DNA from: a virus
DNA: 64,000 nucleotides
Strand: one strand, 5' to 3'
IMG/VR virus record: IMGVR_UViG_3300005663_000033
Coordinates: 49,444-113,443 of that record
Shown in pieces: positions 4,585 through 33,048 of the stretch. The position numbers were made by a program, and so were the translations under genes. Each line of letters opens with the position of its first letter. The stretch's first letter is position 1. The notes beneath the pieces were generated by a model. That model was not told the origin of the DNA, made no database searches, and saw nothing but the letters and a program-made list of their open reading frames with translations.

Positions 4585-4618
4585 GGGGTGGGGGTGTGTC
4601 CCCCACCCCTTTTTATTT
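4585..4618 (+). terminator. strong intrinsic terminator between Ubl and E2-like gene
   Basis: GGGGTGGGGG-TGTGT-CCCCCACCCC perfect 10-bp stem followed by TTTTTATTT. Confidence 0.85.
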
Positions 4619-4631
4619 CTGGGAATTCACT

Positions 4632-5594: not shown

Positions 5595-5967
5595 TGTATG
5601 CCACGACACGTATTGCAAATCTTGCCTAGAGCACACTTGTGTGTCCTGCAATGAAAAATGTTGTGACTCATGCGTACAGTCCTGCGCTGGTTGCGGTGAT
5701 ACCATGTGCGATGACTGCAATACTTCGTGTGAGTGTTGCGGTGACGGTTGCTGCGGAGATTGTATTGAAGATCAAACTTGTAGCAAATGCGAAGGTTATA
5801 TCTGCAAGAGTTGTAAGATTACTTGCGGCGTATGCGATAAAATATTCTGCAAATCTTGTGGAGATAACGAATGCACAGATTGTGGAGTTCCCATGTGCGA
5901 TTCTTGTGTTGCTGAACACGAGTGTTTGCTTACAGGAATCAAGCCCTCGACTCAAAGCTCGCAGTAA
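5593..5967 (+). pseudogene. out-of-frame continuation of the E2 Cys-rich (CxxC repeat) tail
   Basis: CxxC periodicity resumes in the +1 frame at the TCC-TAA stop; no SD or own start seen. Confidence 0.65.
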
Positions 5968-5981
5968 TAAGGAGAAGAAAA

Positions 5982-6908
5982 ATGGCGAAAACAGAAGAAT
6001 TTCTAAAACCTAAAGTAACGTTTGGTGATACATTACGAATATCTCCCCTAGCATTCGCAAAGATGATATTCTGGAGAGACTGCGGAGACACTGAAGTAGC
6101 GGCATACGCAACTACCCACACAGACGACCCCTTGTTTATTACAGACTTTCGATTAATCAAACAAGAATGCACAAACATAACGTTTGATATCGACAAAAAC
6201 GATTTAGCTGAAGATGTAGAACACACACTAGATGATGGGCTATGCCCGTGGATGACACACAATATATTGTGTCACACTCATCCCGGATGTTCACCCTTAC
6301 CGAGCCACAACGACGAAGAAAACTTCAAGAAAGCATTCTCTCATCCGAATTGGGCAATCATGCTAATCATAGCAGAAAATGGAGAAACTTACTGCCGCCT
6401 CAAAATTAATACGGCTCCAGGCGTAGAGAAGCTATTGAAAGTCAGTGTTGACTTTAGCCAGGAATTCGAGGCCTCAAACCACCAATCATGGGACACAGAA
6501 TACAAATCCAAAGTAACCGAGAAGAAATTCCGCATGACAGGAAAAGAGGGGGTGGCGGCGAATAATGCCTTACCCTTTCAGGGAACAGAGGGCTTCCCGT
6601 GTTGGGACTACGAAAAAGAAGATTGGGTCGAGTTTGATAGACAAGGCGAAGGCGGGAATGAAGAAGCTTATGACATAGCTAGTGATTGTTTTTGGGATAG
6701 AGACGGTAACGCTGTGTATTGGTGTGAAGATCACTATGGGTGGTATTTCTTCGATCCAGTAAATGATAAATGGTCTTTCGACGACGCGGACGACGATGAA
6801 AACAGTATCGTAGAGATCGAACGGCCAGACGAGAAATGGGCTGAGCAAGTAGTTGCGTGGGCTGAGAAATTTGCTGATGAGCAAAACATCTGCGTAGGAG
6901 AACAGTAG
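5982..6908 (+). CDS. JAB/JAMM (MPN+) metallopeptidase, deubiquitinase-like, with acidic C-terminal extension
   Basis: Upstream Glu (DTEV) plus HTHPGCSPLPSHND = HxH-x7-S-x2-D; TAAGGAG SD. Confidence 0.85.
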   Translation: MAKTEEFLKPKVTFGDTLRISPLAFAKMIFWRDCGDTEVAAYATTHTDDPLFITDFRLIKQECTNITFDIDKNDLAEDVEHTLDDGLCPWMTHNILCHTHPGCSPLPSHNDEENFKKAFSHPNWAIMLIIAENGETYCRLKINTAPGVEKLLKVSVDFSQEFEASNHQSWDTEYKSKVTEKKFRMTGKEGVAANNALPFQGTEGFPCWDYEKEDWVEFDRQGEGGNEEAYDIASDCFWDRDGNAVYWCEDHYGWYFFDPVNDKWSFDDADDDENSIVEIERPDEKWAEQVVAWAEKFADEQNICVGEQ

Positions 6909-7217
6909 ATGGAGAAATTAAATGACTATATGGGGATAACCTATCCTAGCTTCTTATATTGGAGGATTTGGCGGCGTACCGTCTGGTATCTCTGGAAGAA
7001 GTTTCTGTGTCCAAAAAATGTTCACTTATTCGATGAGGTGTTGTCTAGCGAACACACCCTTGTTTGTGATGTCTGTGGACTGTGTGTTCATATCTCGATA
7101 ATAGAGACTGAAGAAAAAAGTTGGGACAGAGCAGGCAGTGGTTTGTATATTGAAACATCGGCAGTTGAAAAGAGTTACGACAACGACACCCATTGTATTC
7201 AGATATCACAGGAGTAA
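6909..7217 (+). CDS. hypothetical protein within the Ubl operon
   Basis: Abuts JAB stop; C-x4-H...CDVC possible zinc site. Confidence 0.55.
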   Translation: MEKLNDYMGITYPSFLYWRIWRRTVWYLWKKFLCPKNVHLFDEVLSSEHTLVCDVCGLCVHISIIETEEKSWDRAGSGLYIETSAVEKSYDNDTHCIQISQE

Positions 7218-7222
7218 AAATC

Positions 7223-7882
7223 ATGCAGAGTCTAATAGAAAATCGTGACATTCGCCAACGGGAACTGATACCTCCAGAAAAATTGGCAGAGATCAGGGTC
7301 ACAATCGTTGGCGTTGGAAGCATAGGAAGGCAGGTAGCACTCCAATTAGCAGCTATTGGAGTATCAAGGCTCCATTTGGTAGACTTTGACACAGTCTGTC
7401 CAGAAAATCTGGCGGCGCAAGGTTTTTATGAAAGCGATCTCGGACGACCCAAGGTGGACGCCGTCGCGGATATCTGTAGGGCAATCAATTCGGAGATTGT
7501 GACAACCACTGCAAACAGAAAATTCAGGGGATTTGAGTTTACCGGGGGTGTGTTTTTCTGTTGTGCTGACGGAATCGACACCAAAAGGAAGATGTTCGAC
7601 TCTGTCAATAAGCGGGCAGACCTGTTCCTAGATGCTCGTATGAGTGCAGAGTATATAAGGGTGTTCTCTGTCTACGATGATGCGTCCAGGGAATATTATC
7701 CCACAACCTGTTTCCCAGCAGCCGAAGCATTCCAAGGAAGTTGCACGGCGAAAACAACCATATATTGTGCTAACGTCGCAGCGGGTATGCTAGTGGCGCA
7801 ATTCGCTAAGTGGTTGCGAGGATGTGAACTTGACAAAGATGTCGATCTCAATCTGTTAATGAATGAGATGGGGGCAAAATAA
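7223..7882 (+). CDS. E1-like ThiF/MoeB family adenylyltransferase
   Basis: IVGVGSIG nucleotide-binding loop, VDFDTVCPENLAAQ, GRPKV, CADG, DARM; candidate catalytic Cys in GSCTAK; AGGAG SD. Confidence 0.9.
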   Translation: MQSLIENRDIRQRELIPPEKLAEIRVTIVGVGSIGRQVALQLAAIGVSRLHLVDFDTVCPENLAAQGFYESDLGRPKVDAVADICRAINSEIVTTTANRKFRGFEFTGGVFFCCADGIDTKRKMFDSVNKRADLFLDARMSAEYIRVFSVYDDASREYYPTTCFPAAEAFQGSCTAKTTIYCANVAAGMLVAQFAKWLRGCELDKDVDLNLLMNEMGAK

Positions 7883-14466: not shown

Positions 14467-14505
14467 TTTTGTGGAACAAATTGCTTAGTTGGACGTATAA
14501 TAAGG
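14467..14505 (+). promoter_or_regulatory. conserved phage promoter motif, copy 2
   Basis: TTTTGTGGAACAA-N16-TATAAT-AAGG. Confidence 0.8.
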
Positions 14506-14802: not shown

Positions 14803-16362
14803 ATGAAGGACTTCGCCACGGATTTTGCCGATTATTGTTGTTCAGGTCACGCCCTATTACATGTAGAAACCTTCGAAAAAGATCGGGTAATAAGCGAGAT
14901 TGCGAAGGTGGCTGACGCTATGAATCGTAAGGTCTATATTTGGTCTATCGCTCGTGGATGGATAGACAAGAATGGTGGTTCTGTATGTGGTGTCAAACCC
15001 TCTGCTCAGATCGAAGAACACTTGCAGGCAATCGTTGAATTCCCGAATAGCGTTATCTGCATACTGCGCGACTTTGGCATATATATGCAACACGAAACCT
15101 ATTCCTATGATGATGTTGTTGTTGGATGGTTGGATGAGCTTCGCAAAATCGTAGGATCAGTCAACCAAAATATCGTTTTCGTTGGTCCAGATTTTAAGGT
15201 CCCCAAACCATTGCTGCATGATATTACGAAGATTGATTTTGATCTACCAGATAATGATCAAATCAGTGAACGAATCGATTTTGTTTGTAGTGATGTGGTC
15301 AAAGCCAATGGGGAAAAGTTCGAACCAAATAAAGATATAATTCCACATATCATTGATTCTTGTCGTGGTATGACTTCACAACAGACGGTCGATCGTGTTG
15401 CTCTAGCCCTTCGAAAACACAAGGACTTGAATGAGGATGCCGTGCGCACCATCGTCAGAGAAAAGGCCAGCATTATTCGTGCATCTGGACTCCTCACATA
15501 CATAGAACCGCCAAAAGGAGGACTAGCTAATGTCGGTGGATATGACGCACTAAAACAACACGTCCTCCTAGATCAACCATGTTTTACTCAAGAGGCGAGG
15601 AAGTTTGGAATAGAATTCCCCAGAGGACTTATGCTTGTTGGAATACCGGGCTGTGGAAAAACGCTGCTGTCTCTAGCCATCGCATCGGAACTTGGTTTGC
15701 CGCTCATCTCCATGGACGTTGGCAATCTAATGGATAAATATGTTGGTGAGTCCGAGGGCAATATGAGGGAAGCAATTAAGATGTTAGAAAGTATCGCCCC
15801 GTGTGTTTTACAGTTGGACGAAATAGAGAAAGGTTTTGGTGGCACGTCTGACATGGATGGTGGTTCGTCTCGTCGAGTATTCGGCACCTTCATCAAGTGG
15901 CTAAACGACAGAGAATCCCCCGTATACGTTGTTGCCACAGCCAACCAAGTCCAATCTCTCCCACCTGAGTTTTGTCGTAAGGGTCGTTTCGATGAGATAT
16001 ACGGACTCGATCTACCAAACTTCGAAGAACGTAAAGAAATCTTCTGTATTCATCTCTCGAAGAGGGAAAGAAAACCAAGTGATTTTGAAGTTGAAAAGTT
16101 ATCTGAAATCAGCCAAGGGTATACAGGAAGTGACGTTGAACAAACTATCAAACTTGGTCTAAAGATGGCTTTCTCAGAAAACAGCGAGCTTACAACAACC
16201 CATCTCATGAAAGCTATTTCTAATATAGTTCCACTTTCCAAAACAGAAGAGAGCCGAATTAAGGAAATCAGACAGTGGTGTAAGATGCATGCGCGGGCTG
16301 CAAATCCAAGTAAGAAAAATAGTCCACGTGGGGACAACGCCAGGACAGTCTCACTAAACTAA
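14803..16362 (+). CDS. Ycf46-like AAA+ ATPase
   Basis: Degenerate N-terminal AAA-like domain plus active domain: GIPGCGKT (Walker A), LQLDEIEK (Walker B), ATAN, LPPEFCRKGRFDE. Confidence 0.9.
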   Translation: MKDFATDFADYCCSGHALLHVETFEKDRVISEIAKVADAMNRKVYIWSIARGWIDKNGGSVCGVKPSAQIEEHLQAIVEFPNSVICILRDFGIYMQHETYSYDDVVVGWLDELRKIVGSVNQNIVFVGPDFKVPKPLLHDITKIDFDLPDNDQISERIDFVCSDVVKANGEKFEPNKDIIPHIIDSCRGMTSQQTVDRVALALRKHKDLNEDAVRTIVREKASIIRASGLLTYIEPPKGGLANVGGYDALKQHVLLDQPCFTQEARKFGIEFPRGLMLVGIPGCGKTLLSLAIASELGLPLISMDVGNLMDKYVGESEGNMREAIKMLESIAPCVLQLDEIEKGFGGTSDMDGGSSRRVFGTFIKWLNDRESPVYVVATANQVQSLPPEFCRKGRFDEIYGLDLPNFEERKEIFCIHLSKRERKPSDFEVEKLSEISQGYTGSDVEQTIKLGLKMAFSENSELTTTHLMKAISNIVPLSKTEESRIKEIRQWCKMHARAANPSKKNSPRGDNARTVSLN

Positions 16363-16371
16363 GGAGATATT

Positions 16372-17382
16372 ATGAGTACCGCAACGGTGCAGAAATCAAA
16401 GTCTAACCAGGACACCATTAATCTTTTCGAAGTCGGGTGCCTGGTCAATCTAAGAATTAGCATGTGGTCTGGGAGAAAAATGTTGACCCGTGCTGATCTT
16501 GTTCATGTTGGTTACGACCCCGACAAACTTCCTGAAGATATAGTAAATCTCGGAAGAAAGCTTATGGTTCCCAAGTCGGAACTGCAAACTCTAAATCAAA
16601 TCGAACAGCGCGCCCGTAAGGCGTTGGAACGTTGGTCCGTACCATTTGGTATTGCCAATGCTCACTTTGTCCCATCGACAATGATTATGACGGTCGAACA
16701 ACAGGTCAAAGAATTGAAAAAAGAGTTTTTCGTTAGAGTTGACAGCTTCATTAGGCGTTTCGACGATCTTATCAAGGCAGTAAAGGACGCTCATCCAGAA
16801 TTCTGGGATAAGTGTTTAAAGGGGCACTATCCGTCCAATCCAAAATCGTTGAGACAATTGTTCCAGTTTGACTGGTATACCTTCAAGATATCTGGAGTAT
16901 CCGCGATCGAAGAGGTCAGTGCGGAGGAAGTGGTTGCTAAACAAAAGGTGCAAAACGAACGAGAAGTAGAATTGCGTCAACAAATGCAAACCGCTGTAGG
17001 TGAGTTTGTAGGAGAGTATGTAACCACCATGAGGGACGAAACTGTTAGATTTTGTAACCTAATGACGGCTCGTATCAATGGTACGCCCTTTGAGGATGAA
17101 GAAGATGTCAAAGGTCTGACTCCAAAATCTATCTCATGCTTCCGCAATTATATCGATCGCTTCCGGTCAATGAATGTCTTCGGGGATGGAAGTATTGAAA
17201 AGATGTTATCAGAATTCCGAGACACGTTCTTGGATTCTGGTGTTACTCCACAGGATTTTGAGTCGGCAACAGTTGCTAGTAGCATAACAAAGGCGCTCGA
17301 AGCCATTCGGAACAAGGCTGCCGCTGAAGGTGAAAGTGGTAGTCAGTTTATTGGGGAACTAAAAAGGAGGATTGTGATATGA
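16372..17382 (+). CDS. DUF3150-like protein
   Basis: LRISMWSGRK...LGRKLMVP, coiled coils, FRSMN; directly follows the AAA gene. Confidence 0.6.
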   Translation: MSTATVQKSKSNQDTINLFEVGCLVNLRISMWSGRKMLTRADLVHVGYDPDKLPEDIVNLGRKLMVPKSELQTLNQIEQRARKALERWSVPFGIANAHFVPSTMIMTVEQQVKELKKEFFVRVDSFIRRFDDLIKAVKDAHPEFWDKCLKGHYPSNPKSLRQLFQFDWYTFKISGVSAIEEVSAEEVVAKQKVQNEREVELRQQMQTAVGEFVGEYVTTMRDETVRFCNLMTARINGTPFEDEEDVKGLTPKSISCFRNYIDRFRSMNVFGDGSIEKMLSEFRDTFLDSGVTPQDFESATVASSITKALEAIRNKAAAEGESGSQFIGELKRRIVI

Positions 17383-18098
17383 CAAAAGCGATTGACATTT
17401 TGCGTCGTTGTAAAGAACTCTTCGAGAAGGGACTTGTCGGAATTCCTATAGGCCAGAGTATTGGTTCCGACTGGGTTGATGATGTAGAAATAGATATCAA
17501 CAACTTCTTAACGGGATACAATGAAATCACCCTAGGTAGTTGTTATCATACTGGCCTTGCATACTCTCTAGCTTACGATGCACATGGAATGGTGGAACTG
17601 TCTGGTAAAACATTCACCAATCTAGACACTGGTGTCGATGGTGGAGCAATGGCTGCTCTAAAAGAATACCAACGAAATTTAAATCCTGATCGAGATGTCC
17701 CTTTCTTCATTGTCGCACTTAAGCCAGTCAAAATCTATAGGCCTCCAGACTTGGATGTTTGTGACGATTGTTTTAAATGGAAGAAAGATTGCGCCTGTGA
17801 CGAAAATGATACCACCAACTCCGGGTGTAATTGCCTTGATGGTAATTGTGATGACGATTGTTGCGAAAACTGTGGTGAGCTATACGAACATTGTCAGGGT
17901 CTTTGCCTCGATAATTACGACCCATGCGACGAATGCGGTAGCTCGGATTGCGATTGTTGGGTTTATCAAGAGTCTTATTGCCAAAATTGTGGCCTGGTTG
18001 ATTATAAGTGTTTTTGCCCCGACGGATGTCGGTGCAACAATGAGGTGGTCGCTCCACCTCTGAATGCGTTTGATAGGGCAAGGTTCCTGAAGGCATAA
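17379..18098 (+). CDS. hypothetical protein with Cys/Asp-rich C-terminal half
   Basis: Many CxxC and CxC motifs. Confidence 0.65.
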   Translation: MTKAIDILRRCKELFEKGLVGIPIGQSIGSDWVDDVEIDINNFLTGYNEITLGSCYHTGLAYSLAYDAHGMVELSGKTFTNLDTGVDGGAMAALKEYQRNLNPDRDVPFFIVALKPVKIYRPPDLDVCDDCFKWKKDCACDENDTTNSGCNCLDGNCDDDCCENCGELYEHCQGLCLDNYDPCDECGSSDCDCWVYQESYCQNCGLVDYKCFCPDGCRCNNEVVAPPLNAFDRARFLKA

Positions 18099-18109
18099 GG
18101 GAAACTATA

Positions 18110-18523
18110 ATGAGCAGATATTGTACAGTACGAACTGAATTCATGGATGGCAGGGCTCTAATAGAAGCTCTCGTGGAGACTGGCCATTGGACAGCAGAAC
18201 AAATCGAAATTCACCATGAACCACAACATCTTCTTGGATATAAAGGCGACAGGCGCAAAGAAACAGCCAATATTATTATTCGTAGTAAACATGTAGGTAG
18301 ATTATCAAACGATATCGGTTTCGCCAAAGGGGAAGACGGTAATTATGTAGCAATAATTTCCGAATACGACTCTGGTAGGTATGGAAAAAAGTGGATCGGC
18401 CAATTGACGGGCAATTACGCTTATCACAGAGTCCGTAGAGAGCAAGAATCTCGCGGTCGCAATGTGTCTAGGGAACGTGGACGGGATGGTCGCCAAAGAG
18501 TGACTATCACAGGTTATAGGTAG
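18110..18523 (+). CDS. DUF1257 (Ycf35-like) protein
   Basis: MSRYCTVRTEF...L.EAL...GYKG...NDIGF...Y..IISEYD. Confidence 0.75.
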   Translation: MSRYCTVRTEFMDGRALIEALVETGHWTAEQIEIHHEPQHLLGYKGDRRKETANIIIRSKHVGRLSNDIGFAKGEDGNYVAIISEYDSGRYGKKWIGQLTGNYAYHRVRREQESRGRNVSRERGRDGRQRVTITGYR

Positions 18524-18528
18524 AAACT

Positions 18529-18870
18529 ATGGCATTGCAATTCTTAAGCGAAAACACCGGAAAAATGAAAGATGCTGTGTTTTGTTTTACTGGCAAATCC
18601 CCAAAGACTCGTCCCGAGATGCAAGCGATTGCAATCGGTGCTGGCGCAACAGTCACCAAATCCGTCACCAACAGCACAACCATCTTGGTAATTGCAGACG
18701 CAAATAGTACATCATCCAAAGTAATAAAAGCTCACTGGAGGGGAATTGATTTAATAAGCCCAGAACAGTTCTTCGAAATATGTGGCAAAACCAAAACGTC
18801 AAAGAAATTTGTAATAACCAAACCATCTGAAAAGAAAAGACATTCGTCTGTGAGACGGATACAACTTTAA
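18529..18870 (+). CDS. stand-alone BRCT domain protein (LigA/RFC-type BRCT)
   Basis: FCFTG...R...GATVTKSVT..TTILV...SSK..KA...GI. Confidence 0.85.
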   Translation: MALQFLSENTGKMKDAVFCFTGKSPKTRPEMQAIAIGAGATVTKSVTNSTTILVIADANSTSSKVIKAHWRGIDLISPEQFFEICGKTKTSKKFVITKPSEKKRHSSVRRIQL

Positions 18871-18881
18871 GGAAAAAAACC

Positions 18882-19394
18882 ATGAAACTTATAGACATTC
18901 CACAAATGAGTAGACCTGGATATGCTACTGACCATTTTCTATATATGTTACCAAAAACTATCAAACAATATCAAGAAGAACGACTTTGTCCTCTTAATCT
19001 GGAACCTGATTTCCAAAGGGTTCACGTTTGGACTCCCGAACAGCAAACTCGATATATGGAATTCATTTTACGAGGAGGAAACTCATCGAAGGATTTCTAC
19101 TTCAATTGTCCTGGTTGGCAGGGTTCCTATGATGGACCATTTGAACTCGTTGACGGCAAACAACGACTTGCTGCCTGTTTGGGTTTTATGAACGGAACAG
19201 TTCCCATTTTTGACGGATTCTATATTGGAGACTTTACTGACAAACCATTCAATGTTCTCCTGCGTTTCCATATCAACAATCTAAAAACTCGTAAAGAAGT
19301 TCTCCAATGGTATCTGGATATTAATTCTGGTGGAGTTGTTCACACCGCCGATGAACTAGACAAAGTAAGAGAATTACTAGAAAAGGAAATTTAA
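18882..19394 (+). CDS. stand-alone DUF262 (ParB-like) protein
   Basis: PDFQRVHVW and ELVDGKQRL motifs. Confidence 0.8.
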   Translation: MKLIDIPQMSRPGYATDHFLYMLPKTIKQYQEERLCPLNLEPDFQRVHVWTPEQQTRYMEFILRGGNSSKDFYFNCPGWQGSYDGPFELVDGKQRLAACLGFMNGTVPIFDGFYIGDFTDKPFNVLLRFHINNLKTRKEVLQWYLDINSGGVVHTADELDKVRELLEKEI

Positions 19395-19397
19395 TCT

Positions 19398-19685
19398 ATG
19401 CAAAAACTACAACTAGAGATTAGTCACATAACTATCCCGAAGGGGATCGGAGCAGATCAAATATCCTTTTGTGTTCCAAATGATCGGGTATTAGATGATG
19501 TACTAGGAGACACAGAAGCCCGTGAATGTTTCCCAGAACTATATTTCGACCTTAAAATTACCAAAGGTAAAGGCGAAAAACTATTGTCAGCCCTTGGATT
19601 AGTAGCGGATAGGATCATATCCAGGTCAACCGGATATAGTTTTGGACGATCAAGAAAAAATCATGATAAACAAAGTAAACCATGA
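19398..19685 (+). CDS. hypothetical protein
   Basis: ORF in gene string. Confidence 0.55.
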   Translation: MQKLQLEISHITIPKGIGADQISFCVPNDRVLDDVLGDTEARECFPELYFDLKITKGKGEKLLSALGLVADRIISRSTGYSFGRSRKNHDKQSKP

Positions 19686-19935
19686 TTTGGCCTATGCCCT
19701 AGCTGAGTTCGCCACCCATGTCATAGATAGATATGACTCCGATGACCCATCAGCAAGAACTCAAATATTAGTCAAAGGCGTTTTCGCTGGGGCTAGTTGT
19801 GGAAGTTTAGTGGAATACGCTAAGGAAAAACTACTGTTGGCCCACACATATATTTCACCAAAAGAGATTGAGGATATAAAAAGGAGAAATATGGATGGCA
19901 AAAATTGCAATCTTCCTCCGAGGAGAACCAAATGA
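19663..19935 (+). CDS. hypothetical protein
   Basis: ORF coupled to the next gene by an ATGA overlap. Confidence 0.5.
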   Translation: MINKVNHDLAYALAEFATHVIDRYDSDDPSARTQILVKGVFAGASCGSLVEYAKEKLLLAHTYISPKEIEDIKRRNMDGKNCNLPPRRTK

Positions 19936-20942
19936 CACAAGATCGTAAACTTTGTTTCAACGATATCTTGTTAGTCCCACAATATTCAACGCTGGATTCC
20001 AGAACAACCCCTGATATAACAACCCATTTGGGTCATCTAGAACTGAGAGCCCCGATTATCTCTGCTCCTATGGATTCAGTCACTGGAAAATATATGCTTG
20101 TCATCATGGATAAGTTGGGCGGTTTGGGGATATTGACTCGTCATATCAATTTGCCAGACGACGAAGAGTTGGCGATGCAAGTTCGAGAGATTCAATGGGC
20201 TCGCGATCAAGGTGCTATTAATGTAGGATGTGCTGTTGGAATCAAAGGAGACATTGACAGGAAGGCTCAATCTCTATTGAACGCCGGGTGCAATGTGATC
20301 TGTCTAGACGTAGCCCATGGCGACCACAAAAAGATGTACGAGGCAATAAAGATTATAGTTCTTCTTCAAGACAACTACCACTTTATCGTCATGGCAGGCA
20401 ACGTATGCACCGAAGAGGCGGTAATAAAATTCGCAAAGCACGGTGTAGATGCTATTAAAGTAGGTATAGGACCTGGCGCAGCTTGTACGACCAGGATTAT
20501 AACCGGATTTGGTTATCCTCAAATGTCTGCGATCATTGAATGTAGCAATAGTATCAAAAAATATCCACAAACAACAATTATTGCAGACGGAGGAATCAGG
20601 AATTCGGGAGATATGGTAAAAAGCCTTTGGGGTGGAGCAAGTGCGTGTATGATCGGATATATGCTGGCAGGGACCAATGCGACCCCAAGAATCGATGGCA
20701 AGAAAGTCTACAGAGGGATGAGTAGTCGCGCTGTTTCTGGTAGATCAGACATAGCCCCAGAGGGAGTCGAAATAGAGATGGGAGATAAAGGGGAAACAGA
20801 AGAAGTCGTAAAAGGATGTATCAAGGGAATTCGCTCAGGTTTAGCGATGGGTGGAGCGAAAAATCTCACCGAACTGCGTGAGAATATTAAACACGTAATT
20901 GTCAGTCCACTATCTATGGAAGAAACAATGCCTAAATCGTAG
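19932..20942 (+). CDS. GMP reductase / IMP dehydrogenase family protein, no CBS domains
   Basis: SAPMDSV, DVAHG, AGNV, KVGIGPGAACTTR (catalytic Cys), IIADGGI, YRGMSS. Confidence 0.9.
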   Translation: MTQDRKLCFNDILLVPQYSTLDSRTTPDITTHLGHLELRAPIISAPMDSVTGKYMLVIMDKLGGLGILTRHINLPDDEELAMQVREIQWARDQGAINVGCAVGIKGDIDRKAQSLLNAGCNVICLDVAHGDHKKMYEAIKIIVLLQDNYHFIVMAGNVCTEEAVIKFAKHGVDAIKVGIGPGAACTTRIITGFGYPQMSAIIECSNSIKKYPQTTIIADGGIRNSGDMVKSLWGGASACMIGYMLAGTNATPRIDGKKVYRGMSSRAVSGRSDIAPEGVEIEMGDKGETEEVVKGCIKGIRSGLAMGGAKNLTELRENIKHVIVSPLSMEETMPKS

Positions 20943-20951
20943 AAAGGTGAT

Positions 20952-21137
20952 ATGATGGGTTTGTTAAAAAACATAGTCAGGGGTATTTTGTCAATAAATC
21001 TATTCCCACCACCTAAACCACCTTACAAAGCTCCTGAAATAAAGTCTGACGAAGAAGCTATTCGTGAAAATTGGGAAATCGTTGGAAAAGACTTACAAAG
21101 GGCTATGGACAAAATTGATAAAATAGAAAGAGAATAA
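20952..21137 (+). CDS. hypothetical protein
   Basis: AAGGTG SD. Confidence 0.55.
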   Translation: MMGLLKNIVRGILSINLFPPPKPPYKAPEIKSDEEAIRENWEIVGKDLQRAMDKIDKIERE

Positions 21138-21138
21138 A

Positions 21139-21339
21139 ATGAAAAAGAAACTCAAAGACATCGCAGAATTCATTTTGCTGTTCTGGTGTTGTGGCGGTGG
21201 CGGCGTTATTGGCCTAGTATGTTTCGCTTTTGCATGGAAACTAGGGGTGGTCATCTTAGGCTTATGGGGGTGCTCGGTTATCATGGCGATCCTTATCTTA
21301 ATCAACAAACAAACATCAAAAAAAAGAGATAAGAAATGA
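21139..21339 (+). CDS. small membrane protein
   Basis: Two hydrophobic helices, basic termini. Confidence 0.55.
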   Translation: MKKKLKDIAEFILLFWCCGGGGVIGLVCFAFAWKLGVVILGLWGCSVIMAILILINKQTSKKRDKK

Positions 21340-21593
21340 AAATTGTTCTAGACATCGATCCTGCTGGAGATGTCCATTGTCTATATACTGACGAAATCGA
21401 CTTATTCGCCATAGGAAGAGTTGTTGGGGTGCGTAAGGCGTCAAACGTAGAATTCAACGAAAAAAAACAAGTCTGGGAAGTCTTATCTCTCGAAGGGAAA
21501 GTCCTACACGAAAGTTGCAGCCGCGTGGCTGCTATAGATTGGGAAATAAAGGCGTTTTCGCCAGGGGGAATGTGTTATGATCCTATGGATTGA
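21336..21593 (+). CDS. hypothetical protein, probable accessory of the Ycf46/DUF1257/DUF2997 module
   Basis: IDPAGDVHCLYTDEIDL...RKASNVE motif; module association is from recall. Confidence 0.6.
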   Translation: MKIVLDIDPAGDVHCLYTDEIDLFAIGRVVGVRKASNVEFNEKKQVWEVLSLEGKVLHESCSRVAAIDWEIKAFSPGGMCYDPMD

Positions 21594-21948
21594 TGAGTTT
21601 GGAGAGGCACACGTCGCAAATGACTTAGATGACGGTATGATTGACGCTATTAATAATAGTGAGGCGGTGTTCTATCGCTTTGATACTGATACCAAAAAAT
21701 ACCAGTATCACAATGGTACTAATTGGATAACCATTAAAGAAGGGTAGGGGGATGATATGCGAAAAGTGTATTATAAGGTAGTGTTGAATGTGTTTATTCT
21801 TGAGGATGATGAAGCAAATGTCGCAGACAGATTGAGAGAATCAACATTTGCTTTAGACTATAACGCCCTCGATGAAGTTGCTGATGTCCACGATATCTCC
21901 GTAGAAAGTGTAGAAGTAACCGACTCTAGATAAAAGGAGATTTAAGTT

Positions 21949-22203
21949 ATGCTACCCGAAGACGCTAAAAAAAACAAATGCGATCGATGCGGAGTGATAG
22001 TTAGCCTTTATCGTCATGCAAATGGTTGGCGATGCCCATCGTGCATCTGGAACGAACGAGAAAACTTGATTAAATGGTCTAAACCACTGCTTAATCTAAC
22101 CCATTACACAGCGGCTAAATATAAAGACAATCCGGTAGTAATTGTGTCTCGCAGAAACCTTGACGCTCTGGCAGAAGTCGTCAAAGAGGTCACCTCTATT
22201 TAA
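21949..22203 (+). CDS. zinc-ribbon hypothetical protein
   Basis: AAGGAG SD; CDRC...CPSC. Confidence 0.6.
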   Translation: MLPEDAKKNKCDRCGVIVSLYRHANGWRCPSCIWNERENLIKWSKPLLNLTHYTAAKYKDNPVVIVSRRNLDALAEVVKEVTSI

Positions 22204-22214
22204 CGAATGAGAAA

Positions 22215-22415
22215 ATGACCTTATCGTCTTTAAAAATGAACGAAACAGCAACCATTATTGGTTGTTCAAATAAGAGACTGTGCGACTTAGGTCTAATATG
22301 TGGGGTAAAAATACGTATAGTCAAGCAAGGTAATACTTGTATTATACGATTCAATAACACGAGTCTATGTATGGGTTATAAGTATCAAAAAATAATAGAA
22401 ATAGAGAGGAAATAA
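22215..22415 (+). CDS. feoA: FeoA-family (SH3-like) protein
   Basis: MTLSSLKMNETATII...KRLCDLGLICGVKIRIV pattern. Confidence 0.7.
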   Translation: MTLSSLKMNETATIIGCSNKRLCDLGLICGVKIRIVKQGNTCIIRFNNTSLCMGYKYQKIIEIERK

Positions 22416-22416
22416 T

Positions 22417-23025
22417 GTGGCTATGGAAGTGTTTAGAGGATGGTATCGTAAGTCTCTGTCTAGAAAAGGCACCGTGTGGCACCGTGTCCATAAGGTCGAT
22501 TCTGTTTTCGCTAGCAAGCAGATGGCATACACAGTATGCGATAGACGTATAGCAACGACCAAGTGTGACTTCGATATGAAACCAGATCACAGATATATGC
22601 AGTGTGAAAAGTCACCTGGAGTAATAGTAGAAACGGGTCGTGGTTTTGTCCCCATAGGCGCAACAGCAATCAACACCAAAGCTGATGCCATTTACGAATT
22701 GAAACGTCTATTGAAACCACGAACCTATTATCTTAGGATTTGGGGTATCTATGGTGTTCAAATCACAGCCAAATGGGAATCAGATATTAGTATAGATATT
22801 TACACAGAAACCGAAATCATTACCAAACGGCACAAGAAAAAGCTTATGGCTTTGCTGCAAGTGCAAGCAGACTTGGGTCGTTTCAAGTCTGCGATTGATT
22901 GTCTTTGTGACGCAACAACCGTCCTGGCCAAAAAGGCTAAGGAGAAGAAGAAGTTAAAGGGTCGTCTAACCGAAGCAGAAGATCAGGCGTACTTCGAAGA
23001 ACTCTTATATGAAGCGGAGAAATAA
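22417..23025 (+). CDS. hypothetical protein
   Basis: 202-aa ORF in gene string. Confidence 0.6.
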   Translation: MAMEVFRGWYRKSLSRKGTVWHRVHKVDSVFASKQMAYTVCDRRIATTKCDFDMKPDHRYMQCEKSPGVIVETGRGFVPIGATAINTKADAIYELKRLLKPRTYYLRIWGIYGVQITAKWESDISIDIYTETEIITKRHKKKLMALLQVQADLGRFKSAIDCLCDATTVLAKKAKEKKKLKGRLTEAEDQAYFEELLYEAEK

Positions 23026-23027
23026 AA

Positions 23028-23285
23028 ATGTCGTGGTCATTAAAAAATATGATTGATAAAATGAGTGATGACAGAAGAGAGGCTCAGCTACAATGGAACA
23101 GAGAATTTCCACCAGATATAGAGGTGGATGTGGTTGAAGATGCTGGTATAACAATTACGTATGGAATATGGAAAGTTCCTAATGGCGACATCTTCTTTAT
23201 ACCTAAATCAAAAAGTGGTTATCAACCAGAGCGCAGAATTAATATTGACAAAAAAATTGTCGAGGCAATAAGGGGTAAAACATGA
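23028..23285 (+). CDS. hypothetical protein
   Basis: ORF in gene string. Confidence 0.55.
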   Translation: MSWSLKNMIDKMSDDRREAQLQWNREFPPDIEVDVVEDAGITITYGIWKVPNGDIFFIPKSKSGYQPERRINIDKKIVEAIRGKT

Positions 23286-23494
23286 CTCAGGTAATGATAG
23301 ATGTTAATGATAAAAGAATAGACGAAGCGGTAAGAAAAGAACTCAAGCGACTAGAAGGACAGGTTAAGCGTTTGAAGTTGAGCAATGCAAAACTCAAGTC
23401 TCAGATAAGAGACCAACAGGAACTTGAGACAAGAGCGCGTAAGATTGTCAACGCAGCGGAAGCTATAGTCCGTGAATACAATGATGAGGAATAA
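23282..23494 (+). CDS. small coiled-coil protein
   Basis: ATGA overlap; heptad pattern. Confidence 0.6.
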   Translation: MTQVMIDVNDKRIDEAVRKELKRLEGQVKRLKLSNAKLKSQIRDQQELETRARKIVNAAEAIVREYNDEE

Positions 23495-23495
23495 G

Positions 23496-23792
23496 ATGAT
23501 AGAAAGAGACAAGATTTACATCATAAACACCAATGATCTCACTCAGGTCAAATGTTTTTCTGTTGGTGAAACAGTCTCCTACAAGATAGCAATGTACCTT
23601 CTTGGAAAAAGGATTCCTTTGTTTCTCCTTTGTCGCCCAGGTTACAGTTCTATCTTTTTGGAATCTCATCTCCATTGTGAGATGGTGGAAGAAATCAAAA
23701 AATGGTTGACAGCGACAATCAAGGTTCGTTATAGGGGTGTAGGAAAAATGAAATCTATACCATTCCCTTTTAGGGATAAGGAGAAAGAATAA
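23496..23792 (+). CDS. hypothetical protein
   Basis: GAGG SD before ATG 23496. Confidence 0.5.
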   Translation: MIERDKIYIINTNDLTQVKCFSVGETVSYKIAMYLLGKRIPLFLLCRPGYSSIFLESHLHCEMVEEIKKWLTATIKVRYRGVGKMKSIPFPFRDKEKE

Positions 23793-23986
23793 TGAAAACA
23801 ATATATGTCGTCCTTAGAGGGGAAAACCGTGAGTTCAGAAGATTATTCTCTTCTCGCGGTGGGGCGGAAGGCTACATATCCACAGGACAAAAGGCTGGGA
23901 TAGATGGCTCTGAATCAGAATTTGTTGAAGTCCACCAAGTAAGAGAAGAAGCAAGTTGCGACTCTTGTATCTCTAATGAGGAGTAA
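23792..23986 (+). CDS. hypothetical protein
   Basis: TAATG coupling, AAGGAG SD. Confidence 0.6.
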   Translation: MKTIYVVLRGENREFRRLFSSRGGAEGYISTGQKAGIDGSESEFVEVHQVREEASCDSCISNEE

Positions 23987-23988
23987 TC

Positions 23989-24195
23989 ATGCGAGAACAA
24001 AAGAAAGTCATCATAGATATTGACCCAGACGGAAATTGTTCGATAGGGGGTGAGGGGTTCGTTGGTCCTGAATGTGGTCATTTCCTTAGTGAAATTGAAG
24101 AATCACTTGGAACACAAATATCTCAAAAAGATAAACCGGAATATAGACAAAGACACACAACCAGTAATAGAAACCGTCAGTGTGAAGGTAGGTAA
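23989..24195 (+). CDS. DUF2997-family protein
   Basis: IIDIDPDG...GFVGPEC...IEESLG...KPEY pattern; GAGGAG SD. Confidence 0.75.
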   Translation: MREQKKVIIDIDPDGNCSIGGEGFVGPECGHFLSEIEESLGTQISQKDKPEYRQRHTTSNRNRQCEGR

Positions 24196-25477: not shown

Positions 25478-25996
25478 GTGCTGATGCAATTAATTCGTTA
25501 CCCATCACAAATATTGTTGAAAATATGTAAGTCGGTGCTTGACTCAGGGAAGGGTCAGAGACGTAAAGATAGACTTATACTTGCCAACAAGATGTGGAAA
25601 ATAATGAATGATAATCATGGCATTGGATTAGCTGCACCTCAAGTTGGACTTGATATCCGTATGTTCGTCTGGAATTACTATGGCAGTCAGGTGCATAATC
25701 AGGCTATTTGGAATCCAGTCTTGATTCATATATGTGGTTTTATAGAATCAACAGAAGGATGTCTTTCGTTGCCTGGAGTAAACGTAACCCTACAAAGAGC
25801 AACATCATCTGTTTTGTCTGGCACTGGAATAAACGGGAAACCAATAGGACTCATCGGAAATTCAATCACAACACGAATTTGGCAGCACGAAATTAATCAC
25901 CTAGACGGCAAGCTGATCATAGATAATATGAGTTTGAGTGACAAAAATTCCAACAAAGGTGCTCTTCGTGAATTATTGAAGAATCATGGACAATAA
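25478..25996 (+). CDS. def: peptide deformylase
   Basis: GIGLAAPQVG, EGCLS and QHEINHLDG motifs. Confidence 0.92.
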   Translation: MLMQLIRYPSQILLKICKSVLDSGKGQRRKDRLILANKMWKIMNDNHGIGLAAPQVGLDIRMFVWNYYGSQVHNQAIWNPVLIHICGFIESTEGCLSLPGVNVTLQRATSSVLSGTGINGKPIGLIGNSITTRIWQHEINHLDGKLIIDNMSLSDKNSNKGALRELLKNHGQ

Positions 25997-27403: not shown

Positions 27404-28054
27404 ATGCCGAAATTGATTGATCTTACTGGGAAAAGATTTGGTAGGCTTGTTGTTATCTGTCGCGACAAGAAAAATCGATTTGGAACACTCTGTTGGTTGT
27501 GTTTGTGTGACTGTGGTAAAGAAAAAATTATTCTTTGTGGCAGTCTTAAAAGTGGCAAGACGAAAAGTTGTGGATGTTTACGAAAAGAAATTATTTCAAA
27601 AATAATGACAAAACATGGCCATACGAAGAATAGGAAACAATCTCAAGTCTACAGGTCGTGGTATCACATAATACAGCGATGTACTAATTCTAACACAAAA
27701 GACTACCGTTGGTATGGTAGTCGAGGAATAACTGTTTGCGAACGATGGTTAAAATTCGAAAATTTTCTTGAGGATATGGGAGAGGCACCAATTGGATATC
27801 AAATTGATAGATTGGATAATAATAAAGGGTATTATTTAGAAAATTGTCGGTGGGTTACCCCAAAACAAAATGGTCGCAATAAACGAAACAATCATCTGAT
27901 TACACATAATGGCGAAATACAATGTATATCTGCTTGGGCAGAAGAAACCGGAATAAGTAAAAATACTATATTGTGGAGAATAACTCACGGTTGGTCACCG
28001 GAGAAAACTTTAACTACACCAGGTAAAATGGAGAAAACGAGTGACTGTAACTGA
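27404..28054 (+). CDS. free-standing HNH-type homing endonuclease, paralog 1
   Basis: DLTGKRFGRL, CLCDCG, SCGC, YGSRGITVCERW, IDRLDNNKGYYLENCRW. Confidence 0.85.
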   Translation: MPKLIDLTGKRFGRLVVICRDKKNRFGTLCWLCLCDCGKEKIILCGSLKSGKTKSCGCLRKEIISKIMTKHGHTKNRKQSQVYRSWYHIIQRCTNSNTKDYRWYGSRGITVCERWLKFENFLEDMGEAPIGYQIDRLDNNKGYYLENCRWVTPKQNGRNKRNNHLITHNGEIQCISAWAEETGISKNTILWRITHGWSPEKTLTTPGKMEKTSDCN

Positions 28055-29492
28055 AATAAAGCCAAAAGTTATCACAATTTTTCCAGAGCGCGGGATTATC
28101 GTGGATAAGAATTTAGTAAATTTGAACGAACAATTCCGAAAATTGCCATCTTTTGTGGCTGATTTTTTGGTCGCAGAAATGGTAGATAGTGATAACCCCG
28201 CTCCAGGTTTGGAACGCATTAATCAACTTCTAAGTGATCATTATATGGAATCCGACCAAAGGGAGCTTGTGAAGAGTAAAATTCGTGAAAAAGGAGAGTA
28301 TACTCTTCTAGGGAATATCCGTTGTAGATATGATGATGGCAAGGATGAATATTGGGCTGATGTTGTGGCACTCGGGAATCAGTACATCCGCATAGACCCA
28401 TACCTTATCGCCGAACACGGAGAAACTCTATTAACCACCGGCGCTTGGGGGATATTTCAAATCACATATGATGATTCATACGTCATGAGAAATAAACTAT
28501 ATCCATTTTTAATAACCAAGTTCCGTCCTATACAGATTACGAGAATTGATGTTGATACCTGGATCAAACGTAGATCCCAGTTCACAAATGAAGAATGGCT
28601 AGATTTAATGATTACGAGTGTCGGCTTTGATCCCACCCATCTTTCTGAAGAAGAAAAATGGTTGTATATGGTAAGGATGGTTCCATTTATTGAACCAAAT
28701 GTCAATATGGTAGAACTCGGCCCCACCATGACCGGAAAAACATTTGCGTGCCAATCTCTCAGTGCTCATGGATTTGTGATTTCTGGCTCCCAAACAACAG
28801 TGGCGTCTTTATTTTATGATAAACTGCGAAGACAATTGGGGTTAATAGGCTATAGAGACGTCGTTGCGTTTGACGAATTCACCAATAGTCGCGGTGGGAA
28901 CAAATGGTCTGGACACAGCGGTTTAGTAGACATCCTCAAAGATTTCATGAATTCTGGAAGATTCGGTCGTGGTACTGCTGAATTTGCTTCGGATTGTTCT
29001 TTGATGTTCATGGGAAATATTGATTGCGATAGAGACAAGAGGGCTGTTTCGGTAAGATATCGGAGTCTTTTCTCACCATTTCCACAAATAGTTAGTCAAG
29101 ATAGGGCATTTATTGATCGTATCCATGGATTCATTCCAGGTTGGCGAATAGGGCCGATTAGAGAATCCAACCTTGCCAAAGGTTTAGGGTTTATGGCTGA
29201 CTATATGTCTGAAATAATGCACAGAATGAGAGATCGTAATTATGCTAATGTCATATTACAAAATGTGGATTTCGGGAAAATGGGACAAAGAGATCAGAGA
29301 TCGCTTGTTCGTATAGGGTCTGGTTTACTGAAATTGGTGTTCCCCCACAGAATAGTCGAAACTGTAGAACCTAATGAACTGAAAACCGTTTTGGATATGG
29401 CGGTCGATCTGCGACAGAGAGTGTTGGACCAGCTAGCAATAATTTCTCCTGGTGAATTCAAGGGTGTTAAATTGGAGTATAAAGTTAAATGA
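28041..29492 (+). CDS. BrxL-like (MCM-type AAA+) ATPase lacking the Lon protease domain
   Basis: VELGPTMTGKT, TTVASLFY, VAFDEF, LKDFMNSGRFGRG, DRAFIDRIHGFIPGW. Confidence 0.8.
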   Translation: MTVTEIKPKVITIFPERGIIVDKNLVNLNEQFRKLPSFVADFLVAEMVDSDNPAPGLERINQLLSDHYMESDQRELVKSKIREKGEYTLLGNIRCRYDDGKDEYWADVVALGNQYIRIDPYLIAEHGETLLTTGAWGIFQITYDDSYVMRNKLYPFLITKFRPIQITRIDVDTWIKRRSQFTNEEWLDLMITSVGFDPTHLSEEEKWLYMVRMVPFIEPNVNMVELGPTMTGKTFACQSLSAHGFVISGSQTTVASLFYDKLRRQLGLIGYRDVVAFDEFTNSRGGNKWSGHSGLVDILKDFMNSGRFGRGTAEFASDCSLMFMGNIDCDRDKRAVSVRYRSLFSPFPQIVSQDRAFIDRIHGFIPGWRIGPIRESNLAKGLGFMADYMSEIMHRMRDRNYANVILQNVDFGKMGQRDQRSLVRIGSGLLKLVFPHRIVETVEPNELKTVLDMAVDLRQRVLDQLAIISPGEFKGVKLEYKVK

Positions 29493-31514: not shown

Positions 31515-32405
31515 ATGCCTATGCTTGAACTGGCCTTAGATGAATTCGAAACATATATCCGCACGGAGCTTGGTTTATCCAAGGAGACGCTTTCGGCGTA
31601 TCTCAGAGATGCAAGAGAATTTCTTGATTTTATCGGGATACAAAAATTGACCGCCAAGTTAATAGAAGAATTCGTTAGTCATCTGCGCGGGCGGGGACTT
31701 AAGCAAACGACAATCCGGCGAAAATACATGTCTGTTAGATGTTTGTGCCATCACCTCATCAGCCGTGGTGGTCTAGATCCGAATATTCTCGGTATGGTTG
31801 ATTCAGTTCGTATAAACAGGAGAACGCCAGATGCATTGGAACATGAAGCTGTGGATGCCCTTGTGGCTGCTGTGGAAAAACGTGCACCCGTATACAGAGC
31901 AACTAACGTTCGCAGGGATGTCGCTATTGTATTGACGCTATATCACAGCGGACTTCGAGTGTCCGAATTATGTAATATGAATTTGACTGATGTGAACCCA
32001 ACCCGAAGAGAAATAAGGGTGAGAGGAAAAGGTAGTCGCGATCGAATAGTCCCAACCACACATAGGTGTATAAAAGTAATTAGCGATTATTTGGACTTAG
32101 ATCGTAATTCTGATACGGATGCGGTATTTGTTAAGTCTGATGGTCAACGAATAACTCGCCGTGCTATTAGTGATATGTTGATGTCCCTTTCTCGTCGAGC
32201 AGGTGTAAAACACACCACAGCCCATATGTTACGAAGAACTTGTGCCACATCCCTCATGAATAGTGGTGTAGATTTGGAACTTGTACAGACAATGCTCGGC
32301 CATAGACACTTATCAACAACGCAAGCATATTTGGCTGTTAGCTATAATCGACTTGTGGATGTTCATAGGCGATGTCATCCTTTTGGAGAAGAGTATGAAG
32401 TCTAG
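31515..32405 (+). CDS. XerC/XerD-like tyrosine recombinase
   Basis: GLRVSEL (R), RGKG (K), HMLRR (H-x-x-R), LGH, TTQAY (Y); SAM-like N-terminal domain. Confidence 0.92.
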   Translation: MPMLELALDEFETYIRTELGLSKETLSAYLRDAREFLDFIGIQKLTAKLIEEFVSHLRGRGLKQTTIRRKYMSVRCLCHHLISRGGLDPNILGMVDSVRINRRTPDALEHEAVDALVAAVEKRAPVYRATNVRRDVAIVLTLYHSGLRVSELCNMNLTDVNPTRREIRVRGKGSRDRIVPTTHRCIKVISDYLDLDRNSDTDAVFVKSDGQRITRRAISDMLMSLSRRAGVKHTTAHMLRRTCATSLMNSGVDLELVQTMLGHRHLSTTQAYLAVSYNRLVDVHRRCHPFGEEYEV

Positions 32406-33048
32406 TCGGAAGAAACGCAAAAATCACTGTGAACACGATGACGATTGTGAAGTTGTGACAGGACCTAATGCTCCACTTCAATTCGACGAAATAGTAGAAG
32501 ATTTTCTTACTAAAACACGTCGTCTGTTATTGGTGGGAGAAATAGATGAAATAGCATCAGCACATATCTGTAGTTATTTACAAGTTTTTTCTCTTAAAAA
32601 AGACCCTGTCTATATGTACATAAATAGTCCTGGGGGATGTTTAGCTTCTGGATATGCTATTGTCGATCAAATGTTGGCCTGTGATTGTCCTATTTACACA
32701 ATTATTCGTGGACAAGCACATTCTATGGGCGCTATAATAGCTGCGTTTGGCCAAAGTGGACATAGGTATTCAACGCCAAATTCATCTATCATGTTGCATT
32801 CAATTGTTGTTCAGAATGCATCCGGTCATATAGAAAAACATGCCGTAATGCTGGATTATATTCGAAAAAATTATTCCGAAAAGATTGTAGACCTTGCTAG
32901 AAGAATGAAATTGACCACGAAACAATTAGCCGATACAATGAATGATACTATATGGATGTCACCTAAACAAGCAGTGAAAATAGGTTTAATAGATGGGATT
33001 TGGACTCCACGTATGGAACGATCAATTAATAAGGGATTCAGCCAATGA
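32395..33048 (+). CDS. clpP: ClpP-family serine peptidase
   Basis: YINSPGG, GQAHSMGA (Ser), IMLH (His), WMSPKQAVKIGLID. Confidence 0.9.
   Translation: MKSSRKKRKNHCEHDDDCEVVTGPNAPLQFDEIVEDFLTKTRRLLLVGEIDEIASAHICSYLQVFSLKKDPVYMYINSPGGCLASGYAIVDQMLACDCPIYTIIRGQAHSMGAIIAAFGQSGHRYSTPNSSIMLHSIVVQNASGHIEKHAVMLDYIRKNYSEKIVDLARRMKLTTKQLADTMNDTIWMSPKQAVKIGLIDGIWTPRMERSINKGFSQ

Follow-up and report, generated by a model that had tools for sequence, protein, structure and literature searches.

A five-gene Ycf46-type AAA+ module on phages and other mobile elements, and its facultative link to a Ubl cassette

The Ycf46-type AAA+ ATPase, Ycf35 (DUF1257) and DUF2997 form a set that is known from cyanobacteria and plastids. 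A DUF2997-ycf35-fed7 cluster has been described in cyanobacteria (PMC4284462), and Ycf46 is encoded by a stress-induced operon that depends on RpaB and (p)ppGpp, is linked to growth arrest and yields a protein reported to interact with KaiC (PMC13683863). The BilABCD and Bub systems, in which ubiquitin-like (Ubl) proteins are conjugated, are described as bacterial antiviral defence, and an AAA+ partner is mentioned in neither of the two papers (PMC10557695, PMC11601596). Here, we analysed a stretch of 64,000 nucleotides of viral DNA, hereafter the window, which is the final 64 kb of the 113,443-bp IMG/VR viral record IMGVR_UViG_3300005663_000033 (completeness 68% according to CheckV). It encodes a Ycf46-type AAA+ ATPase (the motor), a DUF3150 protein, a DUF1257 protein, a small protein named smallX and a DUF2997 protein, together with a cassette for a Ubl protein, an E2-like protein, a JAB peptidase and a ThiF-type E1. 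A full-text literature search returned no paper on the five-gene module; DUF1257 or DUF2997 was named in 5 papers and DUF3150 in 1.

Comparison with the described systems revealed a mixture of shared and distinct traits. With the cyanobacterial and plastid set, the window has in common the same three families and the two-part build of the AAA protein, and most bacterial loci have a Ycf46-type AAA gene beside DUF1257. Unlike that set, the version on phages and mobile elements adds DUF3150 and smallX and is devoid of a second DUF1257 paralog, which 30 of 80 bacterial loci possess; furthermore, bacterial motors mostly end in EVD, whereas the phage tails differ. The phage cassette has the same four parts as BilABCD and Bub, to which it is likened by gene content, but is phage-borne here and linked to the AAA+ module. 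On plasmids, DUF3150 is found beside a MoxR-like AAA protein and a VWA protein in ssb/bet/exo regions, a further case of DUF3150 together with an AAA+ ATPase on mobile DNA; however, the plasmid ATPase is short (316-334 amino acids, aa) and of a different AAA+ type, VWA and RadC are the partners there, and DUF1257 and DUF2997 are absent.

A module of five genes and its distribution

The original prediction had described the five genes as a dispersed module interleaved with unrelated genes. All five were located exactly as predicted, in a region where every gene lies on the + strand, and Pfam confirmed four of them (Table 1). The interleaved genes, for a BRCT protein, a ParB/GmrSD_N-like protein and an enzyme of the IMPDH/GMP-reductase family (Pfam), are indeed unrelated to the module.

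Genomic contexts were rebuilt by related-locus and genome searches and with our own iterative hidden Markov models, whose sensitivity is below that of Pfam for E2, JAB and Ubl; a diverse DUF1257 alignment, tried initially, had diverged too far to be of use in locating loci. First nine and then sixteen related viral loci were recovered, which are referred to as the clade (motor identity 49-77%, genomes of 160-181 kb). In all sixteen, the order was AAA-DUF3150-(open reading frame, ORF)-DUF1257-[variable BRCT/reductase inserts]-smallX-DUF2997, with homologs of the 239-aa ORF of the window at the equivalent position in 7 of the 16. The module spans 5.1 to 13 kb in the clade and 9.4 kb in the window. 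It is 5.1 kb long and nearly contiguous in both a locus devoid of BRCT and reductase (L104) and one devoid of the reductase (L107). The constant gene order with variable inserts across the clade implies that the 'dispersal' reflects insertion into an older operon; in the window, unrelated genes would have stretched this ancestral operon to its present length.

Compact operons were found on unrelated replicons. Plasmids of Ca. Manganitrophus carry AAA-DUF1257-DUF2997-DUF3150-smallX, the Rhizobium phage RHph_I4 and the Aeromonas phage HJ05 carry AAA-ORF-DUF1257-DUF2997-smallX, and ten non-clade viral and three Myxococcota loci show the order AAA-DUF1257-DUF2997-(smallX)-DUF3150. The gene 3' of the motor in RHph_I4 and HJ05 was considered as DUF3150-like, and the comparison gave no support for this. 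Of 22 non-clade viral loci, 18 have DUF2997 and DUF1257 no more than 3 kb apart. In bacteria, the same maximal distance separates a Ycf46-type AAA gene from DUF1257 in 56 of the 80 loci, covering at least seven phyla (Cyanobacteriota, Actinomycetota, Planctomycetota, Verrucomicrobiota, Chloroflexota, Myxococcota, Acidobacteriota and others), and DUF2997 within 10 kb in 36 of the 80. Given the same order in the sixteen clade loci and the compact operons on unrelated replicons, the predicted unity of the five genes is upheld, and it is very likely that they constitute one conserved mobile-element module.

DUF3150 lies directly 3' of the motor in every locus of the clade, and the gene contexts suggest that the motor-DUF3150 pair is the tightest sub-unit of the module. 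Cluster O mycobacteriophages (L014, Firecracker gp100/gp99; Dylan) have a homologous AAA protein followed by a protein with weak similarity to DUF3150 (for Firecracker gp99, Foldseek probability 0.99 with E 7e-3, and hmmsearch 3e-5), and DUF1257 and DUF2997 are absent there.

In actinomycetes, the core is part of a larger operon with the order DUF2997-AAA-large/WD40 proteins-Hsp70-like-DUF1257 (L080, L089, L070, L086, L061). One to three large paralogous proteins, some with WD40 propellers, are encoded in this operon, and an Hsp70-like neighbour was observed in 28 loci. As these comparisons of gene context show, the module is a self-sufficient 'engine' whose neighbouring genes differ from lineage to lineage.

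The motor and its partner proteins

Residues 232-491 of the motor form a classical AAA domain, whose best PDB relatives are the D2 domains of p97/Cdc48 (E 8e-55). The PF00004 score of 102.8 bits (cut-off 21.2) and the motifs place it in the classical AAA clade; identified were the Walker A motif GIPGCGKT at residue 280, the Walker B motif LDEIE, the pore loop KYVG, the sensor-1 motif ATAN and the arginine region RKGRFD. The Walker B, pore-loop and sensor-1 columns were examined and are conserved across 31 homologs. The pore-loop segment of p97 D2 is WFGESE, and the corresponding KYVGESE of the motor is p97-like. By its motifs, the p97-D2-like AAA domain of the motor is thus catalytically complete and includes a pore loop, which makes it probable that the motor forms a ring threading or remodelling proteins with ATP.

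There is one Walker A motif in the whole protein, and the N-half is devoid of a P-loop. Residues 40-205 nevertheless align in register with the motor's own AAA domain over the Walker-B strand, the sensor-1 strand and the lid (hhalign E 4e-4, probability 35%), and the best PDB match of the N-half profile is the AAA+ module of RFC1 (E 0.003). In the ESM Atlas, the N-half matches the N-termini of the same ATPase family only (template modelling score 0.87-0.91). We read the N-half as a degenerate pseudo-AAA domain. A length of about 500 aa, a family-specific N-half of about 230 aa followed by a single AAA domain, and full-length homologs that are encoded beside DUF1257 in the 56 bacterial loci, cyanobacteria included, identify the protein as Ycf46-type, an assignment based on build and neighbourhood. 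As a side observation, inteins with LAGLIDADG domains occur in an ESM Atlas cluster of this AAA family whose members are mostly viral.

The motor had been predicted to be a tandem-domain, Cdc48/p97-like AAA+ protein. A second AAA-like half is weakly detectable, but only one AAA domain is active. The Cdc48/p97-like architecture did not withstand scrutiny, since two tandem ATP-binding domains are absent and the CDC48 model TIGR01243 scored 108.5 bits against a cut-off of 802. In sequence searches, residues 1-235 gave no Pfam, NCBIfam or PDB match to a Cdc48-type double-psi barrel/beta-clam N-domain. Apart from the D2-like active domain, the likeness to the Cdc48/p97/VAT segregases lies in the dedicated small cofactors and in the repeated genomic linkage to the Ubl-E1-E2-JAB cassette. 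The differences are the single active ATPase domain, the N-half without Walker A, a C-terminus without the HbYX motif, and cofactors that are unrelated to Ufd1, Npl4 and UBX by sequence and, for DUF1257 and DUF3150, also by fold search.

The AAA domain additionally matches IetA models (PADLOC 2e-26; NCBIfam IteA 5.4e-23), from which it could be surmised that the module is an IetA-like conflict system for defence or counter-defence against rival elements, with the small partners as sensors or inhibitors. Its carriage by phages, plasmids and multi-copy islands would fit with this, as would the BrxL-like gene that adjoins it in large phages. However, the match covers the generic AAA domain only, scoring 81.7 bits against a cut-off of 510, an IetS-like protease partner is missing, and PADLOC matches none of the partners. 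Since the ycf46 operons of cyanobacteria, which are stress-regulated and belong to the core chromosome, are also unlike defence islands, we regard this explanation as improbable.

The partners were compared at the levels of sequence and fold. The AlphaFold2 (AF2) model of DUF3150 (predicted local distance difference test, pLDDT, 82.8) consists of an alpha/beta N-domain followed by a long helical bundle; it resembles only other phage DUF3150 proteins (E 1e-10) and otherwise generic helical bundles (Z up to 9.3). For DUF1257, an alpha+beta domain was modelled (pLDDT 93.8), for which the fold searches gave no strong relative (best Z 5.5, to KA1 and IntS9/11-CTD-like folds; Foldseek E at least 0.09). 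Sequence and profile searches with DUF1257, DUF2997 and DUF3150 against PDB chains yielded nothing below E 0.04, and ESM Atlas searches with the module proteins returned their own families only. Domain fusions of DUF1257 were sought, and five long proteins were found, one with Endonuclease_7 and the other four without a further recorded domain, none of them being informative. DUF2997 comprises a core of about 55 aa, in which G15, G26 and C29 (G..G..C) are invariant in an alignment of 41 diverse members. As the partners do not look enzyme-like, they are treated as adaptors or regulators.

smallX is characterised by the motifs D..G..h..LYTD, RKASNVEF and NR..AI.WEI. Its family aligns with the ORF of about 108 aa between DUF2997 and DUF3150 of the compact viral operons (hhalign E 6e-5), with which it has the motifs D..G, RASxVE and NR..AI..E in common. 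The joint profile matched at the module end in the Manganitrophus plasmids (8e-18), phage HJ05 (1e-10) and phage RHph_I4 (2e-9), as well as in Planctomycetota. These matches identify smallX as a true fifth member of the module.

The C-termini of the motor and DUF3150 were compared by inspection only. In the clade, the motor ends in R[KT]VSLN (RTVSLN in the window, 16345-16362) and DUF3150 in KRR[VI][VI][LI] (17365-17382), while the DUF1257 C-terminus is GYR. In a second viral group (loci L099-L128), the motor and DUF3150 both end in GRK[IFM][RK][DE]. This co-variation of basic-hydrophobic tails between the groups suggests that the two proteins use a common docking site.

The Ubl cassette, ClpP and the surrounding genes

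Co-occurrence of the module with Ubl/E2/JAB/E1 genes in Planctomycetota had been put forward in the original prediction and was borne out. From an even sample of 401 Planctomycetota genomes, 37 E1 sites were fetched, resulting in 25 informative cassette loci; our own Ubl, E2 and JAB profiles derive from one clade. A phage-like E1 was present in 18 of the 401 genomes, often in several copies, and one genome with a DUF1257 locus had four strong homologs of the phage E1 (about 250 bits). The module or a part of it lies directly upstream of the cassette, in the same direction, in 18 of the 25 loci, from 12 genomes; four or five of the module families are present in ten of these, and eight are partial, four being cut by contig ends. 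The arrangement is exemplified by a co-directional block with the order DUF1257-DUF2997-AAA-DUF3150-smallX-Ubl-E2-JAB-E1 (L177:3722-11045), which ends with one of the four E1 homologs just mentioned. The spacer of 0.3-1.6 kb between smallX and Ubl contains a conserved ORF of about 70 aa in 18 of 19 blocks (e.g., L177:7967-8179; L207-L233), so that the Planctomycetota block in effect comprises ten contiguous genes. The consensus of this ORF starts with M.Q.ELNRAVARATGE..; it has no Pfam family, and a counterpart was not detectable in the window. Since no other window protein matches the Planctomycetota cassette loci, these are not prophages of the phage clade. Prior to the finding of this junction, the Ubl link could have been mere synteny within one phage clade, which was then rejected.

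The cassette is multi-copy in Planctomycetota, with up to six copies per genome (G050, G054, G274, G447 and others). Copies with and without module are close in the E1 tree, suggesting that the Planctomycetota cassette is an actively duplicating or transposing element.

A maximum likelihood tree of 71 motors, obtained from a quick search and subject to long-branch and composition warnings, grouped the Ubl-linked motors of Planctomycetota (support 99) with those of the compact operons from viruses, myxobacteria and plasmids, which have no Ubl genes. The motors of the phage clade (support 100) were placed on the opposite side of the deepest split (support 100 for either side), together with motors of bacterial and phage modules that likewise have no Ubl genes. 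Constraining both Ubl-linked motor groups as one cost 151.6 log-likelihood units (lnL), with a p value of 7e-5 in the approximately unbiased test (p-AU). As the Ubl-linked motors are not sisters in this tree, the phage and Planctomycetota junctions are independent. In the E1 tree, calculated with FastTree only, the phage clade (support 98) and the main Planctomycetota group (support 99) were separate lineages of one cassette type, with module-less cassettes intermixed within the main Planctomycetota group. According to both phylogenies, one cassette type appears to have been joined separately to two module lineages, at least twice. This argues for cooperation and is hard to explain without a functional benefit.

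The four cassette genes are conserved and collinear in the clade relatives, in small phages and in Planctomycetota; in the window, the Ubl C-terminus reads ...KVDGS. A ThiF-type E1 was found in 7 of 7 near-complete clade genomes searched, and an eighth (L138) has both systems; in these eight genomes, module and cassette are 2.2-6.9 kb apart. The JAB gene beside the plasmid module is of the RadC type.

The original prediction had also proposed that the phage ClpP could complete a viral tag-unfold-degrade pathway, in which the Ubl would mark proteins, the motor would unfold them and ClpP would degrade them. The ClpP gene is real and present in two copies in all near-complete clade genomes, and the motor has a translocating pore loop. 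However, a conserved ClpP-docking tripeptide of the IGF/LGF type is absent from the motor, its two LGL strings (297, 451) not being conserved in the family alignment, and its C-terminus RTVSLN is not an HbYX motif. Outside the clade, only two of the eight complete phages with the module have a ClpP and none of the three small cassette phages does, and no relative of the window ClpP was found in the Planctomycetota cassette loci; furthermore, a head-maturation protease may be among the two copies of the clade. With neither a docking loop nor consistent co-occurrence outside the clade, this arm of the prediction is unsupported: ClpP and the module are probably unrelated, and we consider the full pathway very improbable.

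Table 1. Positions of the module, the Ubl cassette and further features in the window (ORFs were called mechanically).
Feature	Position	Strand	Evidence or remark
Ubl	4335-4565	+	cassette gene
E2-like	4596-5594	+	cassette gene; no Pfam match
JAB	5922-6908	+	Prok-JAB 5.2e-5, 23.5 bits (below the cut-off of 25)
E1/ThiF	7193-7882	+	ThiF 6.9e-23, 81.5 bits
Promoter-like element, 'copy 2'	14469-14501	+	TTGT-N3-ACAA, 16 nt, TATAAT; upstream of module; exact motif copies
Ycf46-type AAA+ ATPase (motor)	14803-16362	+	PF00004 2.6e-29, aa 276-403; phrog_8638 6.9e-121, full length
DUF3150 protein	16372-17382	+	PF11348 2.8e-23, 83 bits (cut-off 24.9)
239-aa ORF between DUF3150 and DUF1257	17379-18098	+	no Pfam/PHROG match
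DUF1257 (Ycf35-like) protein	18110-18523	+	PF06868 3.5e-11, 43.7 bits (cut-off 22.2)
Variable insert, outside the module	18529-20942	+	BRCT, ParB/GmrSD_N-like, two small ORFs, IMPDH/GMP-reductase family enzyme (Pfam)
BRCT protein	18529-18870	+	Pfam
ParB/GmrSD_N-like protein	18882-19394	+	Pfam
IMPDH/GMP-reductase family gene	19905-20942	+	Pfam
smallX, 85 aa	21336-21593	+	no Pfam family, weak PHROG match; own profile links it to other modules
DUF2997 protein	23989-24195	+	PF11211 5.5e-9, 36.2 bits (cut-off 24.1)
Peptide deformylase	25478-25996		1.1e-29
BrxL-like, Lon-related ATPase	28041-29492		BrxL_N + BrxL_ATPase, 4.5e-104
ClpP-family protease	32395-33048	+	CLP_protease 6.8e-35
DNA polymerase III alpha, first part	52511-54853		PHP + NTPase
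DNA polymerase III alpha, second part	59832-61781		finger + HhH

The promoter-like motif, downstream of which the original prediction had placed the module, is real, with five exact copies within the window versus 0 expected from shuffles, but nothing about it is module-specific. As about 45 genes follow copy 2 before the next copy at 31471, a shared promoter would not be specific to the five genes. The remainder of the window constitutes a replication and nucleotide-metabolism arm. Encoded in it are a BrxL-like ATPase, a tyrosine recombinase, ClpP, class II ribonucleotide reductase, DnaB, a primase and DnaE, the last of which (DNA polymerase III alpha) is divided between two genes that are 5 kb apart, both close to copies of the promoter-like motif. 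Just after copy 3, at 31515-33548, the tyrosine recombinase, ClpP and a small sigma-70 region 4 protein follow in series. The BrxL-like ATPase and the phage-encoded peptide deformylase are kept in the clade relatives. A megablast comparison of the region with isolated phages gave no match.

Proposed working of the module

Taken together, the reading we propose is that of an unfoldase or remodeller module with four partners that is coupled to the Ubl cassette in this phage, a composite to which we give an even chance. The motor ring would unfold or extract proteins using ATP, with the pseudo-AAA N-half and the conserved C-terminal tails serving as docking surfaces for the partners. DUF3150, DUF1257, smallX and DUF2997 would act as adaptors or regulators that select or regulate substrates, which in this phage would be proteins marked by the neighbouring Ubl or the conjugation machinery itself. 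The result would be a facultative 'tag and unfold/extract' pair for which ClpP is not needed. Considering the parts of this reading, functional coupling of module and cassette is mildly favoured by the gene arrangements, while specific action of the motor on Ubl-tagged proteins would be a tentative assumption that we consider rather unlikely.

Several observations weigh against the proposed reading. On the protein side, the folds of DUF1257 and DUF3150 yield no functional match, and neither the motor nor any partner has a recognisable Ubl-binding domain. Cassette and module are separated by about 14 other genes in the window, and the E2-like protein has 332 aa versus 417-445 aa in its relatives; an overlapping ORF in another frame (5389-5967) holds three further copies of the E2 C-terminal repeat, so that the window E2 may be frameshifted in the repeat region, be it a real change or a sequencing error, which could affect Ubl function. 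Regarding distribution, a ThiF E1 was found in 0 of 8 complete non-clade phages carrying the module or its motor, and, with E values of up to 5 allowed, the 10 kb around each of the 80 bacterial and 22 non-clade viral modules yielded no E1, JAB, E2 or Ubl relative. Conversely, three complete phages of 51-55 kb carry a compact Ubl-E2-JAB-E1 cassette without DUF1257 or DUF2997, and 7 of the 25 informative Planctomycetota loci are without any module family. Finally, the association represents two independent events only and not a statistical sample.

The predicted co-occurrence with the Ubl cassette across phages and Planctomycetota therefore stands for the 18 Planctomycetota loci and all near-complete clade genomes but does not extend to the non-clade phages or to the cassettes that occur alone. 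From the gene neighbourhoods, the Ubl-module link is real but facultative.

This dissociation in both directions is what would be expected if the module were an independent machine that remodels host or element proteins, for instance in DNA establishment or host takeover, with module and Ubl cassette both being accessory cargo that is co-transferred in the same mobile-element islands and early regions. Plasmid copies of the module or of DUF3150 are surrounded by RadC, ssb, bet/exo, ParB, helicase and Fic genes, as is typical of establishment regions; the neighbours of the triad in actinomycetes are Hsp70-like and WD40 proteins instead; and cyanobacterial ycf46 belongs to a stress-induced operon tied to growth arrest (PMC13683863). 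The genes intervening between both sets in the window also fit with an independent machine. Such an explanation has to accommodate, however, that one cassette type was joined to two separate module lineages, that order and orientation of the junction are fixed in 12 Planctomycetota genomes, that nothing else is common to the Planctomycetota islands and the phage, and that the linkage is kept in the phage clade despite many insertions. We consider it possible, albeit somewhat improbable.

Following the reading of a coupled module further, it could be a dedicated reader or segregase of the conjugates of a Bil-like Ubl cassette and, hence, a phage and bacterial counterpart, possibly a forerunner or parallel, of the ubiquitin-Cdc48 axis; this extension is doubtful. 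That the Ubl systems of bacteria and phages conjugate proteins is a recent finding, and neither of the two Bil/Bub papers (PMC10557695, PMC11601596) mentions a downstream 'reader', for which a repeatedly linked p97-like motor with its own cofactors is the obvious candidate. The ten-gene Planctomycetota block offers a compact construct for testing the coupling. The module is widespread on phages, plasmids and islands and is related to ycf46 and ycf35, so that solving one copy would lead to the annotation of thousands of genes. If the reader/segregase reading is true, the same engine would be re-aimed elsewhere, by Hsp70-like and WD40 proteins in actinomycetes and by stress regulators in cyanobacteria, and a biochemical role would be provided for the long-orphaned ycf46 and ycf35 of plastids and cyanobacteria.

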